This document shows, piece after piece, positions 3,768 to 56,395 of a stretch of DNA of 56,805 nucleotides (the first letter of the stretch is position 1; every line of letters starts with the position of its first letter). Both the position numbers and the translations under genes were made by a program. The notes under the pieces were generated by a model. That model was given only the letters and a program-made list of their open reading frames with translations, was not told where the DNA came from and did no database searches. The DNA is from Bacteroidota bacterium (GTDB lineage: Bacteria > Bacteroidota > Bacteroidia > Bacteroidales > VadinHA17), in NCBI GenBank assembly GCA_011374625.1, contig DRPN01000168.1, positions 1-56,805 on the forward strand. The letters run 5' to 3'.

Positions 3768-3850
3768 GATTTTTTTCTGCATTGACAAAAACCTGTACCC
3801 TTGCCACATCATGACTCAAAACTTTACAATACAGGACAAAACCAAAGGAT

Positions 3851-4050
3851 ATTTTCTTGGAGGAAAGGTATAAACACATAGAGGTGCTGGGCCTCATCCC
3901 GACCCTGAGTAGTGCTTTTATCATCAGCTACCGGAAACCAGGTACCGGTACAGGATGGTTGCGCAAAGATATCGAATGGTTCTTTTTATCCTCTCTAATT
4001 TATTCCGTTGCCTTTATCTTGGTAAAAAAACACATTAAAAAACTCAACTC
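3851..4050 (+). pseudogene. Possible remnant of an EamA/DMT-family membrane transporter
   Basis: The frame reads IFLEERYKHIEVLGLIPTLSSAFIISY...EWFFLSSLIYSVAFILVKK, resembling the EamA fLkEr...lG pattern plus the next helix. It has no plausible N- or C-terminus. Confidence 0.3.
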
Positions 4051-15091: not shown

Positions 15092-15859
15092 TCAGTCATT
15101 CCTTTTTATCTTCTTGCACAATTCCACAAATTCTTCCACACTCAGTTGCTCGGCCCGGCGATTCAGCATATTCAAAGAAACCATATCATCCGGCAGAAAA
15201 CCTTTCAGCGCATTCCGTAGTGTTTTTCGCCGCTGGTTGAATGCTCTTTTCACCAAAGTAAAATAGGTTACTTCCGGACAAGACAGCTTCTTTCTTTCAT
15301 TTCGCACCAGCCGGATCACAGCCGATTTCACCCTGGGCCGCGGATAAAAGACCTGCTCGGGAACGGTAAACAAATATTCCGCATGATAAAAAGTCTGTAA
15401 TAATACACTCAGCAAGCCGAAAGTTTTGGATCCAGGCAGACTTACCAGCCGCTCAGCCACCTCTTTCTGTATCATAGCCACCACCTCCGAAACCCTATCC
15501 CTGAGTTCCAGAACTCTGTATAAAATCGGACTGGTAATATGATAAGGGAAGTTGCCGATGATGGCTATTTCTTCATCATTGCCGGGTGGTAATACAAATT
15601 TTAAAAAGTCTTCGGCAATGATCCTTTCCCGTATCTCCGGAAACCTTTCCCGCAGCCATGCCACCGAATCTTCATCAATTTCAATCAGAAAAAGTTTTTC
15701 TCCGAATTTTTCCACCAGAAACTCCGTAAGAATACCGTAACCCGGTCCTATTTCATAAACCCTACCAGCATTCCCGGCATTTAACACTCCGGCAATCTTA
15801 CGGGCTATATTCTTGTCTTGCAGATAATTCTGACTGAGTGACTTTCTGGGATGATACAT
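15092..15859 (-). CDS. rsmA: 16S rRNA m6,2A1518/1519 dimethyltransferase
   Basis: KSLSQNYL, EIGPGYG, GNFPYHIT, QKEVAER, FNQRRKTLRN. Confidence 0.95.
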   Translation of the reverse strand: MYHPRKSLSQNYLQDKNIARKIAGVLNAGNAGRVYEIGPGYGILTEFLVEKFGEKLFLIEIDEDSVAWLRERFPEIRERIIAEDFLKFVLPPGNDEEIAIIGNFPYHITSPILYRVLELRDRVSEVVAMIQKEVAERLVSLPGSKTFGLLSVLLQTFYHAEYLFTVPEQVFYPRPRVKSAVIRLVRNERKKLSCPEVTYFTLVKRAFNQRRKTLRNALKGFLPDDMVSLNMLNRRAEQLSVEEFVELCKKIKRND

Positions 15860-16060
15860 TGTTTCCCATTATTATTAAAACCGAAAAGTAACAATTTTCC
15901 CCCTGATTTGTTTGCAATGAATATATCTTTTAACGAAAAACATTCGCGTTTTCATCAAATACAGGTTGACATCCAGATAAATTTTTCTTTATATTATTTC
16001 TGGAATCGGTAATCCAGACCATGATTAATTTTTTCTTTTGATTTATGTGTTTTATTATAA

Positions 16061-16160
16061 TGAAGAAAATAAAAATTTTCTTCACCCATATAACCCGTTA
16101 CTCACAGTAAAACTGTTCGTGAGCCCGCTGTGCTCGGTTCACTCTCACAAGAATTTTTTG
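16061..16160. repeat. Dispersed 100-bp hairpin-containing repeat, copy A
   Basis: Its reverse complement matches 56221-56320 at 90/100 positions without gaps (manual alignment). Confidence 0.92.
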
Positions 16161-16538
16161 TAGCCTATTTTTAATCATTCCGTATTGTCTGACTACAAAA
16201 CTTACCGGTTTGACACAGCAGACACTACTGGCAACCGGAGGAAAAGCCAAAGGATCCGGGGGGATTGTAACCTTTACTGCAGAACACACCCAGGAAAGTC
16301 TTTCCGGAAATGGGAAGACCGTTCGGCAAAAGGTGTCCAGATCCCTTATGAGATCTATATGGTCGAAGGGAAAAAGGAATATCCCGGTAAGACGGTTTCT
16401 TTTTAAGGAAAAACAAACGAACCAATCAGGGGATTTGACTTCGTAAAGCTGCAGAAGGTAAACCTTGTACCTAAGTGCCTGGTTTTTAATTCCTGATTAA
16501 AGCTTTGGTAAAGGGGGATTATTTTTTACATATTTCAT

Positions 16539-16546
16539 TATCTTTG
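16539..16546 (+). promoter_or_regulatory. Bacteroidota -7 element (TATCTTTG) for malY-carA
   Basis: TAnnTTTG match ending 18 nt before the ATG at 16565. Confidence 0.6.
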
Positions 16547-16564
16547 CCGCAATAATTTAACGAT

Positions 16565-17752
16565 ATGAATAAACAGGATTTCGATTTTGACCGGCTGATT
16601 GACCGCAGAGATACTCATTCTTTTAAATATGACGGACTGCAGAAGGTGCTCGGAACAGACGAGGTTATACCCATGTGGATAGCAGACATGGACTTTGCCG
16701 TGCCTCCGGCCGTGAGTAAAGCCATCATTAAAAGAGCAGAACATCCTATTTATGGATACACTTTCCGGCCTGATTCTTACTATGAAAGTATCGTCCGGTG
16801 GATGGACAAACGGCACGGATGGAATATTGAAAAAGAATGGATTCAATACTGTCCGGGGGTTGTTCCTGCACTTAACATGGCGGTACAGGGCTTTACGGAA
16901 CCCGGTGAAGGGGTGATCCTACAGTCACCTATCTATCATCCTTTCTTTCATGCCATTAATCTGAATCATCGCAAGCTGCTCAACAACCAGTTAAAAGAAC
17001 TCGAAGACGGCACTTATATCATTGATTTTGACGACCTGGTTGAAAAAGCCAAAGAGGCTAGGCTATTACTTCTCAGCAATCCCCACAACCCTGTCGGCCG
17101 TTCCTGGGATGAAGACGAACTGCGCACCCTGGGCGAGATCTGTACAGCAAATAACCTGCTGGTCGTTTCCGATGAGATCCATGCTGACCTAACCCTCCCG
17201 GGACACCATCACATCCCATTGGCCAGCCTCTCGGAAGAGATTGCATCTCATACCATCACCTGCATATCCCCCAGTAAAACCTTCAACTTAGGCGGACTGA
17301 ACACTTCCTCAGTGATTATCAGTGATCCAGAGGTACGGAAACGTTTTGAAGAAGTAATAGAAAGCCTGCACCTTGGTATGGGCAACCTTTTCGGCATGGA
17401 AGCCTCTATCGCTGCATACAATCACGGAGAAAAATGGCTGGATGCCTTACTGAAATACATACAAGGAAACATTGATTTTGCCCGTTCCTTTCTCAAAGAA
17501 AAACTACCCGGGATTGGAATGTCTCCTATAGAGGCTACTTATCTGCTTTGGCTTGATTTCCGGAAAACAGGCATGAACAACGATGAACTACATAAGTTTA
17601 TGATCAATAAAGCCAAAGTGGGTAGCAATGACGGAACCATGTACGGACCGGGAGGAGAAGGATTTCAACGCCTTAATGTAGCCTGCCCTCACAGTATCGT
17701 TGAAGAAGCTTTTATCCGTATTTACAATGCTTTTAGCACTATATCAAAATGA
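16565..17752 (+). CDS. PLP-dependent C-S lyase, MalY/PatB family (cystathionine beta-lyase-like)
   Basis: PMWIADMDF, YGYT, NPHNPVGR, SDEIHAD, SPSKTFN with the PLP lysine. Confidence 0.92.
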   Translation: MNKQDFDFDRLIDRRDTHSFKYDGLQKVLGTDEVIPMWIADMDFAVPPAVSKAIIKRAEHPIYGYTFRPDSYYESIVRWMDKRHGWNIEKEWIQYCPGVVPALNMAVQGFTEPGEGVILQSPIYHPFFHAINLNHRKLLNNQLKELEDGTYIIDFDDLVEKAKEARLLLLSNPHNPVGRSWDEDELRTLGEICTANNLLVVSDEIHADLTLPGHHHIPLASLSEEIASHTITCISPSKTFNLGGLNTSSVIISDPEVRKRFEEVIESLHLGMGNLFGMEASIAAYNHGEKWLDALLKYIQGNIDFARSFLKEKLPGIGMSPIEATYLLWLDFRKTGMNNDELHKFMINKAKVGSNDGTMYGPGGEGFQRLNVACPHSIVEEAFIRIYNAFSTISK

Positions 17753-25838: not shown

Positions 25839-27134
25839 ATGAAAAGATACTCCATAACATGCAAAATGTTTTTCTTCATCCTATTGGTCACAATACAACA
25901 GGCAATATCTTACAGCAGGAACCTTTCTCCCTCAGAGCAAAACGATACAGTAACCTTCCTGAAACTGGCAGGAGAGGTCATCAATGCGAAGAACAAGCAA
26001 CCAATAATTTTTGCTTCTGTTTTTATAGAAGGAACCCATATCGGAACAGTAACAAATACGGAAGGTCGTTTTTTGCTTAAAGTTCCTACAGCATATGCAG
26101 ACCATAAAATAGGCTTCAGTTGCATGGGATACAAGCAGAAGTTCATGTCTGTTTCCTCATTAAAGGACAATTATAATACCATCCCTTTGGTTCCGGATAT
26201 TATTCCGATCCCTGCAGTCATTGTCCATAACCTGGATCCTGTGATGTTGCTAAAGCAGGCGATGAAAAATATATCTGCAAATTACAGTAATCATCCGGCT
26301 ATGATGACTGCTTTTTACCGGGAAACGGTTAAAAAAGGCTCTTTCAAATACCTGTCCGTAGGGGAAGCCGTGCTGGATATCTACAAAGCATCCTACACAA
26401 ACAATTTGGGTCTTGACAGGGTGTCAGTTTATAAAGGCAGAAAAGCAATTTATGTCAAGCGGGAAGATACTTTAATGGTTAAACTACAGGGAGGGCCTGT
26501 CACGGCATTTTATCTCGATCTGGCCAAGACCCCCGGGGACATCCTCTCTGCATACGTATTTGATTATTACGATTATTCCATAGGCGGTCAGGTAAAAATC
26601 GACGGCCGTACTACATATGCAATTCATTTTGATCAAAAAGATACGGTAACCATCCCCTTATACCGTGGTACCATATATCTGGACACCAGCTCATTGGCAA
26701 TTGTACAGGTAGAATATGAGATCAGTCCCAAACAAATTGACCAAGCTGCTAAATATCTGATCCTTAAAAAACCCGCCCGGTTGCATGTAGATGTGTTAAG
26801 CGCTGCTTATTTAGTAAAATACCGGTTCCTGGATGGTAAGTGGGTTTTGAATTACATGCGACTGGAAAACCGCTTTCGCACTAAGTGGACTAAGAAATTA
26901 TTCCGGTCACATTATACAATTCTTTCAGAAGCTGTAGTGACGGATATTGATTATAATAATGTAAAAAAGCCAAAATACCGAGAGAGTTTTAAATGGCATG
27001 ATATCTTTACCGAAGAAGTAAGTACTTTCGAAGATCCTGATTTCTGGGGTCCCAACAATGTGATCCAACCGGAAGAATCCATACAAACAGCCATTCAGAA
27101 AATCAGCCGGAAACTCAAAAGACATGAAGAATAA
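25839..27134 (+). CDS. Exported protein with a carboxypeptidase-regulatory-like N-terminal domain
   Basis: Signal-peptide-like N-terminus; G.V.NAKNKQPIIFASV...GTVTNTEGRF...SCMGY; AFYRE; DPDFWG..NVIQPE C-terminus typical of this Bacteroidota family. Confidence 0.75.
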   Translation: MKRYSITCKMFFFILLVTIQQAISYSRNLSPSEQNDTVTFLKLAGEVINAKNKQPIIFASVFIEGTHIGTVTNTEGRFLLKVPTAYADHKIGFSCMGYKQKFMSVSSLKDNYNTIPLVPDIIPIPAVIVHNLDPVMLLKQAMKNISANYSNHPAMMTAFYRETVKKGSFKYLSVGEAVLDIYKASYTNNLGLDRVSVYKGRKAIYVKREDTLMVKLQGGPVTAFYLDLAKTPGDILSAYVFDYYDYSIGGQVKIDGRTTYAIHFDQKDTVTIPLYRGTIYLDTSSLAIVQVEYEISPKQIDQAAKYLILKKPARLHVDVLSAAYLVKYRFLDGKWVLNYMRLENRFRTKWTKKLFRSHYTILSEAVVTDIDYNNVKKPKYRESFKWHDIFTEEVSTFEDPDFWGPNNVIQPEESIQTAIQKISRKLKRHEE

Positions 27135-27143
27135 ATTGTAAGC

Positions 27144-27171
27144 GTAGAGGCTCAAAACTTTAAGCCCCTAC
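27144..27171. repeat. GTAG-initiated 28-bp palindrome (REP-like)
   Basis: GTAGAGGCTCAAAACTTTAAGCCCCTAC between convergent genes; related to 50597-50624. Confidence 0.6.
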
Positions 27172-54074: not shown

Positions 54075-55979
54075 TTACCATACTTCCAGCCTTACTTTCC
54101 CCGTTGTAATATCTTCAAAAGGTCCCGGAGTCGGATTCTTATCATTTCTCATATTATCGAAATAGTCGGTATCAATCTGCAACGATGTTGCGTCCGGATT
54201 TTCAAAAGGCAACCGGGAAATTTTTGTCCTTCCCAGAAACGCTGTAGTAATAAACGGATTTTCCATATTTTTCAATGAGTCCGGTAAAGTTAAACTTAAA
54301 TATACATGTTCCCCCTTATCCTCTATATTTATCTCAGGATCAAAACCCGATTCTGCCAGATAAGCGGGTTCCAACCTGTATGGTTTCGTTCCGTTCAGGT
54401 ATACATTCCCGGCCAGCATCATTTTATGGGAAGATAAATCGTACACTGCCAGACCCCATGCGAACCACATGTAATGCCTGTTGTCGGAAATTTTAAAAGA
54501 TTTACGTGCGGCAGGTATCATAAAAATATTATTGTAGTACCTCTGCTGACCGTCATGTATATTCCGTAATCCGGCCACCTGGGTCGAATGAGCAAACATA
54601 TAGGGGGTATACCGGTTTCTCTCTTCATACACCTCCAGATATCCGGCCATCAGGTTATGGACAAAGGCTGCTCCTTCACTCCAATTTCTCAGACTTTTAG
54701 GAGAAAAAAATAGGTTGTTATCCACAAGAAAAGGTCCGTGATCCACTTCCACGAAAAGGTCTTCTTCGGTATTGTCATAAAGCAGGTTTCCTGAAACACG
54801 TGTTCCCTGGGCCATCCAGTCGAGCCAGATGCCCCTTCCCGTATTGTGGATACGGTTGTGCCTGATCAGCACATCTATGGCAGCATGTATCTTGATCCCG
54901 GCAATTTCGGCTCCTGAGAATAGTCTTTTTGTCCAGATATTATAAATATGATTGTCATAGACCTGACTGAAAACAGCTCCAAGACTCCCGACGATCCCTG
55001 CCTGTTCGCAGTTGAAAATAACATTGTTCCGGACAATATGGGATCCGATCTTTTCTTTCGACCAACCTTCTTTCAGTGCCTTAAAGATTACTTCATTATA
55101 GTGAGTAGCGCCATCTATACAGGGATTCTTCGACCAGACATTCTGACCACTTTTCCGATCCTTCCCAAGGGTGATCCCTGCACATTTGGAATCACTTATC
55201 ACATTATCCTCAATGATCCAGCCTTTGCTCCAGTGCGTCCCTAGTAAACCGATCTGTTCGGCCGTAGGGGGCGCCCAGGGAGTAGCAGCCTGTTGCATGA
55301 TAAAACCTTTCACCGTGATATAATTCACACCGGATTTATCAGGATAGAAACATGCCCGGCGCACATTGATTTCCACATTTTCCCTGTTGGGATTGAATCC
55401 ATGGAAGCAGGCATAGATGTATGTGTTATTCTTATCTGTTTCACAATACCATGGGTAAAGTTTTTTCCCATTTACTTCCAACGTTTTTGCCTTGAACAGA
55501 TTTTCCAGGGTAGCCGATTCGTACAGTGATTTTCCGTTGAGATAAACTTCTCCGGAGTGATGAACCCTGCCATGATCATAAAACCAGTCACCATGCAGGA
55601 TCTCTTTGTACGGATTAAAATCCCCGAAAAAAGTATTCGGAAGGATCACTTTCCATACATCGCCCTTGAACTTTTTCCATCCTTTGATCACTTCCGACCC
55701 TTTGATCACCACTTTCTCCCGGTCGCCGGCCCGGTAAACAATCCTTTTTTCATCGGACTCTCCGCCGCGTGGCGGTTTAACCCATTCGCGGTACACCCCC
55801 TCATGTACAACAATCACATCGCCGGCCATAGCCTCCCGGGCAGCATGTGAGATCGTACGGAATGGAGCTGCAATGGTTCCGTTATTCGTGTCGTTTCCAT
55901 GCACAGAAACATGGTATTCCCTCGCAAAAGCAAAAGATACTGCCAGGAAAACAAACAATACGGAAAAAATTTTTTTCAT
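54075..55979 (-). CDS. Secreted right-handed beta-helix glycoside hydrolase, GH120 (beta-xylosidase-like)
   Basis: Signal peptide, DUF1565-like start, WAPPTAEQIGLLGTHWSKGWIIEDN, AEIAGIKIH, IWLDW.AQG, FVEVDHGP. Confidence 0.8.
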   Translation of the reverse strand: MKKIFSVLFVFLAVSFAFAREYHVSVHGNDTNNGTIAAPFRTISHAAREAMAGDVIVVHEGVYREWVKPPRGGESDEKRIVYRAGDREKVVIKGSEVIKGWKKFKGDVWKVILPNTFFGDFNPYKEILHGDWFYDHGRVHHSGEVYLNGKSLYESATLENLFKAKTLEVNGKKLYPWYCETDKNNTYIYACFHGFNPNRENVEINVRRACFYPDKSGVNYITVKGFIMQQAATPWAPPTAEQIGLLGTHWSKGWIIEDNVISDSKCAGITLGKDRKSGQNVWSKNPCIDGATHYNEVIFKALKEGWSKEKIGSHIVRNNVIFNCEQAGIVGSLGAVFSQVYDNHIYNIWTKRLFSGAEIAGIKIHAAIDVLIRHNRIHNTGRGIWLDWMAQGTRVSGNLLYDNTEEDLFVEVDHGPFLVDNNLFFSPKSLRNWSEGAAFVHNLMAGYLEVYEERNRYTPYMFAHSTQVAGLRNIHDGQQRYYNNIFMIPAARKSFKISDNRHYMWFAWGLAVYDLSSHKMMLAGNVYLNGTKPYRLEPAYLAESGFDPEINIEDKGEHVYLSLTLPDSLKNMENPFITTAFLGRTKISRLPFENPDATSLQIDTDYFDNMRNDKNPTPGPFEDITTGKVRLEVW

Positions 55980-56118
55980 AATTATTATGGCATTATAAAT
56001 TTCTAAAATACAAAATCATCTGTAAACTAACAAAAAAAGAACATGAAATAAACATGAATTTTTTTAATTCGCCAAAAGGCAGACAATCCGTCAGGTGACG
56101 GACAAAGTAGGGGTGAAT

Positions 56119-56140
56119 TTTACGCCGCTAGCGGCGTAAA
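56119..56140. repeat. Perfect 22-bp palindrome
   Basis: TTTACGCCGCTAGCGGCGTAAA is its own reverse complement. Confidence 0.9.
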
Positions 56141-56220
56141 TATTATTAACAATCCCATAATGATACCCTGACTCCTTGCAGTGGGGAGATTCATTCAAAA
56201 ATTTTCACAGGAAATTGAGT

Positions 56221-56320
56221 GAAAAAATTCCTGTGAGAGTGAACCGAGCACAGCGAGCTCACGAACAGTTTCACTGTGAGTAACCGTCTACATGTGTGAA
56301 GAAAATCTTTATTTTCTTCA
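56221..56320. repeat. Dispersed 100-bp hairpin-containing repeat, copy B
   Basis: Inverted 90/100 match to 16061-16160. Confidence 0.92.
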
Positions 56321-56395
56321 TTTTATAAAAAAAATTTTATAATCACATGAAAAAAAAATTCATCATAAACTTCACCGGGAAAGATATTTATAAAG

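Follow-up and report, generated by a model that had tools for sequence, protein, structure and literature searches.

Two intergenic regions of the window, by which we mean the whole 56,805-nt stretch of DNA analysed here, carry copies of one repeat in opposite orientations. Copy 1 lies between an rRNA adenine dimethylase gene and a class I/II aminotransferase gene, and copy 2 lies next to a gene of glycoside hydrolase family 120 (GH120). The features to which we refer below are the following.

15092..15859, minus strand: rRNA adenine dimethylase gene, flanking copy 1 on the left, outside the element
16030..16190 (approximate), plus strand: copy 1, decayed and truncated, delimited by comparison with other copies
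16061..16084, plus strand: left-end hairpin of copy 1, 10-bp stem and 4-nt loop, from the sequence and the centroid fold of a sister copy
16097..16136, plus strand: internal module of copy 1, about 40 nt, genus-specific, absent from the element in other genera
16565..17752, plus strand: class I/II aminotransferase gene, flanking copy 1 on the right, outside the element
54075..55979, minus strand: GH120 gene (beta-helix), flanking, downstream of copy 2, outside the element
56043..56346, minus strand: copy 2, complete by both end motifs, 304 nt including its own terminal TTTCAT (56043-56048)
56043..56068, minus strand: 3' arm of the right-end hairpin of copy 2 and the terminal stretch up to TTTCAT
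56069..56195, minus strand: module B, a nested 127-nt mini-element with GC-rich REP-like hairpins, delimited by copies with and without it
56245..56284, minus strand: internal module of copy 2, genus-specific, from the comparison of copies
56297..56320, minus strand: left-end hairpin of copy 2, from the sequence
56347..56352, minus strand: TTTCAT target motif at the left end of copy 2, from the sequence

The original prediction described a structured element of 100 bp, present as an inverted pair, and a repeat search of the window bears the pair out: its arms (16050-16159 and 56222-56331) measure 110 nt and are 89% complementary, and the next-longest inverted pair of the window measures 34 nt at 71%. 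The longest exact run common to both copies is 24 nt. Both contain the first of the two stems that had been described, with 10 bp and a 4-nt loop (16061-16084 and 56297-56320), and the second, ACAGT/ACTGT, was found at 16104-16116 as claimed, within the internal module of copy 1, which also contains a GTGAGC...GCTC motif. A check of the neighbouring genes and their families agrees that no transposase lies next to either copy.

The left junction of copy 1 is degenerate, with no intact TTTCAT, and neither the left-end nor the right-end motif was found in it. It carries an 11-nt insertion at 16160-16170 and has neither the 3' arm of the right-end hairpin nor the terminal TTTCAT. The left TTTCAT of copy 2 is not a gene start (the ORF from there has 19 aa). 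On the other side, 64 nt separate the right end of copy 2 from the start of the GH120-family gene downstream (55979). The two copies had been described as ending in different hairpins; they do, and the difference is explained by copy 1 being cut at about 16190 and copy 2 reaching the conserved right end. Contigs from four metagenome assemblies enter copy 2 from either side and break within the repeat; none in these four DNA metagenomes skips the element, and all break inside it.

When empty sites for the two window copies were sought in sister genomes, the surroundings of neither copy proved syntenic. The dimethylase and aminotransferase genes (15092-17752) are divergent in the window; in the two most distant sister genomes (G005 and G007) the dimethylase is upstream in the same direction, and in closer sisters other genes are upstream. 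This neighbourhood has been rearranged. Between copy 1 and the aminotransferase gene, a stretch of about 360 nt (16200-16560) contains a pair of overlapping ORFs (73 and 78 aa), neither of which matches Pfam.

Copies, junctions and size classes

Although the element had been reported as present twice, BLAST of its own genome (2.72 Mb in 205 contigs, 43% G+C) finds element sequence at 35 places. Four public metagenome assemblies that contain this stretch show a summed contig depth of 154-757 over the core versus 3-17 over the flanks. When all copies are aligned together with their flanks, the similarity extends well past the original 100 nt on both sides. Complete copies begin immediately 3' of a TTTCAT, and their last six bases are a second TTTCAT. 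The left-junction motif is intact in 21 copies and both ends are intact in 15, the latter ranging in length from 134 to 379 nt in this genome; lengths of 86-160 nt are seen in other genera. The element has no gene and, as read by eye, no terminal inverted repeats. The flanks have nothing in common beyond T-rich bases ahead of TTTCAT; the conserved target is on the left side only, as (T)TTTTCAT, and the right flank is unconserved. Orientation relative to the asymmetric TTTCAT is identical in every copy read, both in this genome and in other genera.

Three sources of the size classes are seen. The 5' arm of stem 1 is deleted in 13-15 of the 38 aligned copies (from this genome and the sister species), module B is an optional insert of 127 nt that interrupts the right-end hairpin loop, and a further insert of about 200-260 nt is carried by a single locus that was probably assembled twice. 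This last insert is found within the main element on contigs C27 (about 26,800-27,150) and C163 (about 1-360), where it lies directly 3' of TTTTTTTAATC and terminates in GGGTTAATC; C163 looks like the C27 locus assembled a second time. On C58 (about 3,790-3,900), a copy is cut off by a long microsatellite of the CTCTCAC/CTCATTT type. Several contigs of these genomes terminate inside the element.

Insertion sites and gene starts

Direct evidence of movement comes from orthologous loci. At dapB, the element is found at position -1 in this genome, and the same site is empty in 9 of 10 sister genomes, with the tenth not located by the search pattern. The empty sites have matching upstream sequence and a single ATGAAA or ATGAAG, with no element. 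From the other side, 3 of 6 element loci in the sister genome G002 are empty here, with one TTTCAT (TTCAT in one of them), 2 are filled in both genomes, and 1 could not be assigned as filled or empty. Since orthologous sites are empty in both directions, the element moves, and from these comparisons a filled site equals the empty site plus an element that ends in TTTCAT. In tandem arrays neighbouring units share one TTTCAT, as expected if each element end re-creates a target. The original prediction had proposed a non-autonomous mobile element with hairpins but without terminal inverted repeats or a transposase, to be checked by copy number and empty sites; 35 places and empty orthologous sites in sister genomes support it, and we regard it as very likely that this is a gene-less mobile element with TTTCAT as its target.

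A TTTCAT on both sides of the element, found once in empty sites, also has the formal look of a 6-bp target duplication, as would be left by a classic cut-and-paste DDE MITE at a strongly preferred site. On sequence alone, a duplication of fixed sequence would be indistinguishable from one motif beside the element plus another inside it. We nevertheless consider a DDE MITE very improbable. Terminal inverted repeats are absent by eye, the element takes a single orientation with respect to an asymmetric target, and the sequence of the "duplication" never varies, with the right-hand TTTCAT mutating independently of the left one (TTTTAT, TTTCCT and GTTAT are seen). Correia/NEMIS elements of Neisseria and co-transcribed MITEs have terminal inverted repeats, a TA duplication and insertions in either orientation. 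The element resembles them in being small, multicopy, hairpin-forming, tolerated near genes and probably co-transcribed, but it has neither the terminal inverted repeats nor the TA duplication, nor is its orientation two-way.

TTTCAT is the reverse complement of ATGAAA (Met-Lys), and because the target mirrors this sequence many surviving insertions lie exactly at start codons. For 12 of 21 copies, the left TTTCAT is, read on the opposite strand, the start of an ORF of 238 aa or more; 2 of the 21 (C27 and C163) look like one locus assembled twice. All four tagged genes that were checked with Pfam (DapB, a pyridine-nucleotide disulphide oxidoreductase and two epimerases) begin at true N-termini, the profile match starting from residues 1-8. 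In other genera the element is likewise found at gene starts, including those of hisI-like, mscL-like, SDR and signal-peptide genes, names that come from reading the translations and not from a family search. The genome contains 4493 ATGAAA sites, of which 2806 are inside long ORFs, 501 are start-like and 1186 are other. Thus 57% of copies are at starts, versus 11% of all ATGAAA sites and 30-37% expected outside genes. The enrichment has p = 0.004 if 30% is the expectation for non-intragenic sites and p = 0.026 if it is 37%; both values were computed on 13/22 and are slightly too small for the true count of 12/21. The enrichment is modest, and it is compatible with "start-codon targeting" being the product of a TTTCAT target and the loss of intragenic insertions, not of gene sensing.

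The tagged gene keeps its ATGAAA, which is now supplied by the element, and the old start codon heads a short upstream ORF. This ORF reads MKRT-stop in 68 of 72 unique right ends, a proportion biased by the retrieval of the sample through the terminus itself. A second, overlapping mini-ORF of 2-36 codons is unconserved in length.

A separate, highly conserved motif of about 23 nt, (C)TGAAAAAATTTATGTAGGTTTGTA, occurs in this genome at 19 sites, 15-45 nt upstream of ATG starts (for example C7:6502, C24:10328, C27, C30:13301, C36 and C45). It contains a TAnnTTTG box, which we take to resemble the Bacteroidota -7 promoter element. Several copies of the main element are inserted beside this motif.

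Spread of the family and conservation of its hairpins

Matches along the whole length are confined, in a set of 41 relatives, to this genome and G002, and other genera of the family give many matches to the two ends alone. The elements of those genera are shorter, at about 145-190 nt as read there, with the same junctions. In five of them GTAACCnC runs straight into TTCGCTCTC, with no module of about 40 nt. The approximately 40 nt at the centre of the feature first described are a genus-specific internal insertion; this internal module is related to hairpin modules in other repeats.

The 16-nt right terminus is found in at least 121 stretches when one genome per species is searched. By reading, about 60 of 80 loci with the exact terminus are elements, and about 19 are chance matches in unrelated DNA. 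These approximately 60 elements come from Prolixibacteraceae, Marinilabiliaceae, Marinifilaceae, Paludibacter, Tannerella, Dysgonomonadaceae and Lentimicrobiaceae, and include some from Flavobacteriaceae and Saprospiraceae. Two isolates have 31 (Geofilum) and 44 (Puteibacter) exact termini, where the reversed control pattern gives 0. In the Geofilum isolate (G041), 31 of 31 termini belong to units of 86-105 nt; many of these units are joined head-to-tail in arrays that comprise two subfamilies, have one TTTCAT per joint and start at the ATG of a gene. At loci L270-L300 of this isolate, arrays of up to four units, each of 86-100 nt, stand directly at gene starts. The near-identity of its units between loci suggests recent activity. 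In an even sample of the phylum, the 16-mer is found in 3 of 400 other genomes, once in each. The family is wide and patchy.

Outside chromosomes, a plasmid collection returned 8 weak, low-complexity matches, all from Zymomonas, a phage collection returned no match, and viral contigs returned 16 exact 16-mers, none of which (0 of 16) is element-like. In open-access text we found no publication that contains the 14-nt end motifs, and no description of a start-codon/TTTCAT mobile element of this kind.

A short-form copy folds into three hairpins on either strand, with z = -6.7 for the DNA fold and z = -5.4 for the RNA fold, and 0 of 200 shuffles are as stable. The two stems of the original prediction, described as perfect, are present in the window copies but are not perfect across the family. 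In the alignment of 38 copies, beside the loss of the stem 1 arm in the fraction given above, ACAGT/ACTGT shows a one-sided change in about 11 copies with none compensated, by reading of the alignment. Within the genus, these stems decay without compensation.

The hairpins at the two ends were assessed across genera. In the left stem, the junction (the CAT of the target and the first five bases of the element) has as its partner the 5-nt stretch that precedes an ATG inside the element. Among the 48 of 85 unique elements that have this anchor, 3.29 of 5 positions form Watson-Crick pairs versus 2.20 ± 0.12 with shuffled partners; the shuffle maximum is 2.54, and 0 of 1000 reach 3.29. The right hairpin is long and finishes about 10 nt before the terminal TTTCAT. 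Its arms are paired at 11.8 of 14 positions versus 10.0 ± 0.16 after arms are swapped between elements, with a swap maximum of 10.5 and 0 of 300 reaching 11.8. This test used 47 of 75 sequences, from which chance matches, nested inserts and near duplicates had been dropped. Both end hairpins covary across genera. The left and right hairpins differ in sequence except for a common TGAA/TTCA foot. For right ends aligned with MAFFT, RNAalifold predicted no pairs, as that alignment mixes two hairpin registers.

Covariation of both hairpins across genera, and a strong fold on the strand of the gene as well (RNA z = -5.4), would also fit a host regulatory RNA, that is, a multicopy ncRNA or a shared 5' leader kept primarily for its structure. 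The element lies in the 5' leader of many genes, and the predicted left stem would occlude the ATG that insertion restores. Sister species differ, however, in whether an orthologous site holds the element, the tagged genes are unrelated to one another, tandem arrays form, the stems decay within the genus, and the lengths of the upstream mini-ORFs are unconserved. Rfam, the search of which had been put forward as a check, likewise matched no family. At gathering score the window has 0 matches and the 20 loci taken from other genera yield only a tRNA; in scans by E-value, three copies reached 16-27 bits at best, against cut-offs of 42-55. The empty sites contradict a primary regulatory-RNA identity, which we rate as hardly credible, and the multicopy ncRNA offered by the original prediction is not supported either, given presence and absence between sister species, unrelated downstream genes, uncompensated stem decay and the Rfam blank. 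Individual genes may still experience a secondary regulatory effect. One candidate, Flavo-1, was rejected when its 16-bit match was not reproduced on a flavobacterial copy.

Candidate routes of mobilisation

IS200/IS605 elements and PATEs are marked by a short, one-sided target with the same motif at the right end, by a fixed orientation, by hairpins in place of inverted repeats, and by tandem re-insertion. Several of these traits are found in the element. It inserts 3' of a motif that occurs once in the empty site and has its like at the right end, it has no terminal inverted repeats, and it carries sub-terminal hairpins at both ends in a fixed orientation. Our preferred reading, to which we give slightly less than an even chance, is a Y1-type mechanism. 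An unlinked transposase would move the element in trans; it would be a single-strand "peel-and-paste" Y1/HUH enzyme of the IS200/IS605 kind, which would use guides associated with the hairpins to read a short motif next to the left end and its counterpart of the same sequence at the right end. The original prediction of an HUH/Y1 element end was apt as regards IS200/IS605-like behaviour and misplaced as regards position, as its 100 nt are the middle of the element and the true ends lie outside them.

Module B shows that enzymes of this class have been at work in the genome. It is about 127 nt long and has 26 places in the genome, in copy 2 of the window and on contigs C33, C66, C53, C98, C74, C43, C12, C45, C50 and C30; at 13 places it is nested in the main element and at the other 13 it stands apart from it. 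Within copy 2 it interrupts the right-end hairpin loop, 3' of a TTTAATC carried by the other strand, and it is always 3' of TTTAATC, whichever strand of the palindrome of the main element carries that motif. An IS200-like element of contig C30 resembles it at the right end, with 72% identity over 86 nt. Since module B is related to this resident element, Y1-type transposition has operated here. Its nesting within a hairpin loop indicates that layered elements of single-strand type use each other as landing pads.

REP/BIME sequences are short intergenic hairpin repeats that are spread by a separately encoded single-strand Y1 enzyme, RAYT; REPs measure 20-40 nt, are GC-rich and flank the RAYT gene. 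The element, by comparison, is AT-rich, spans 86-380 nt and has defined TTTCAT junctions, and the RAYT-like genes seen are flanked by other repeats. A RAYT-dependent REP/BIME identity was rejected, as the element is not a GC-rich palindrome of 20-40 nt flanking a RAYT gene.

RAYT-like Y1 genes lie between their own GC-rich REP-like hairpin repeats at L250 and L254 (G041 and G043) and at L150:2216-2614, and these repeats are unrelated to the main element. In this genome, an IS200-type Y1 gene (C99:4705-5064) lies just downstream of what by eye is a putative group II intron reverse transcriptase.

Searches for the partner enzyme were directed at several classes of gene. Y1 genes are found in 8 of 10 element-bearing genomes tested, which says little because Y1 genes are common regardless of the element, occurring in 31 of 41 relatives whether it is present or not. 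In the genomes searched, none of the Y1 genes carries such ends or is enclosed by a pair of them, and G018 (94% completeness) has near-identical copies yet no Y1 match. The search for an autonomous copy, which covered 80 loci with 3-kb flanks and all 31 termini of one isolate, found a gene inside none of the approximately 60 elements of other genomes and none of the 31 in the isolate. When three IS110 and three Y1 proteins were run against all loci by tblastn, the one match was a RAYT-like gene that merely neighbours an element. A search for the TnpB zinc ribbon found no gene with matching ends. The RRXRR (IscB-type) profile gave no match even in control genomes, so that its result is uninformative.

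IS608 and ISDra2 show a strong lagging-strand bias. For the element, GC skew (±20 kb) places 12 versus 14 copies on the two strands and hence gives no replication-strand bias, in a test of 26 copies with at least 15 kb of context for which draft contigs are a rough proxy. The element works like a PATE. Membership is unproven, because a transposase link and a strand bias were looked for and neither was found.

ISGst5 of Geobacillus (IS605 family) has TTCAT 5' of its left end and is accompanied there by gene-less PATE copies (PMC10055086). The PATEs/ISGst5 of Geobacillus stearothermophilus resemble the element in being gene-less and numerous, with hairpin ends, no inverted repeats and a short motif ahead of the left end that has its match at the right end, and they are mobilised in trans, as we infer for the element (PMC10055086). 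Set against that description, no cognate TnpA/TnpB with these ends was found for the element, nor a strand bias; its left stem includes the junction, and start codons are reached and rebuilt systematically. The hosts in that account are Bacillota, whereas those of the element are Bacteroidota.

The absence of a strand bias would fit movement as double-stranded DNA. The element may be a miniature of IS110/IS1111 type, lacking a transposase, carrying a guide like a bridge or seek RNA, and moved by a DEDD recombinase. We think this unlikely, and the same holds for its corollary that TTTCAT, or part of it, would be the core shared by donor and target. In its favour, a segment inside the element can pair with the left junction, covaries with that junction and could be a guide for target and donor; insertion is orientation-specific without inverted repeats, and the same motif stands at both junctions. 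Bridge-RNA targeting, however, reads both sides of the core, and the right flank of the target is unconserved here. Of 10 genomes that bear the element, 7 gave no match to PF01548, the IS110 transposase domain, the isolates with 31 and 44 termini among them; in the other 3 the ends of the IS110 genes are unrelated to those of the element. None of the elements read has an IS110 gene within 3 kb. The sole IS110-type gene of this genome has a stop codon and no such ends, and the ends of the copies in sister species are unrelated. That gene, the only IS110-type transposase gene here (C46:6125-6556), has an in-frame TAG and partial similarity to a sister-species copy, and is probably a pseudogene.

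An IS110 element can mobilise a gene-less module, which lends this rival a precedent (PMC12288879). That module, MITEPpu9 (the ssr9 module of ISPpu9, IS110 family, Pseudomonas putida), is gene-less, with its transposase elsewhere, and is site-specific and orientation-specific without inverted repeats, all of which it shares with the element (PMC12288879). ISPpu9 targets REP sequences, and the genome of MITEPpu9 has an IS110 transposase (PMC12288879). The target of the element, by contrast, is one-sided and 6-7 nt long, and 7 of the 10 genomes mentioned above yielded no IS110 transposase.

The targeted partner searches for Y1, IS110 and TnpB found none, and the spread is patchy (about 60 of 80 terminus loci are real, versus 3 of 400 phylum genomes). 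Both observations leave room for an enzyme of another or unknown kind, such as a tyrosine or serine recombinase of Bacteroidota or a new nuclease. We hold this to be unlikely, as we do the role of recognition sites that the hairpins would then have. The argument is a negative one throughout, and MAGs are often without repeated or plasmid-borne genes.

The element might, more speculatively, be moved by neither a Y1 nor an IS110 transposase, or guide itself through the segment that pairs with the junction, and be a mobile translational leader; we consider this quite unlikely. If true, the leader would consist of the old start as a short upstream ORF, a long hairpin and a start-sequestering stem. 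To our knowledge, Bacteroidota lack Shine-Dalgarno-led initiation.

Whatever the enzyme, the element explains an assembly-breaking repeat and inflated "intergenic gaps" in these genomes, and it should be masked, not annotated as a riboswitch or sRNA. Its target is the mirror image of the commonest Bacteroidota gene start, which is rebuilt on insertion. Insertion at -1 of essential genes such as dapB is possible without killing, and 5' leaders are rewritten. Cultured carriers, with 31 and 44 exact termini, make both the transposase and the effect on translation testable at the bench. If the element is indeed a mobile translational leader, some hosts may use it to retune the expression of housekeeping genes.
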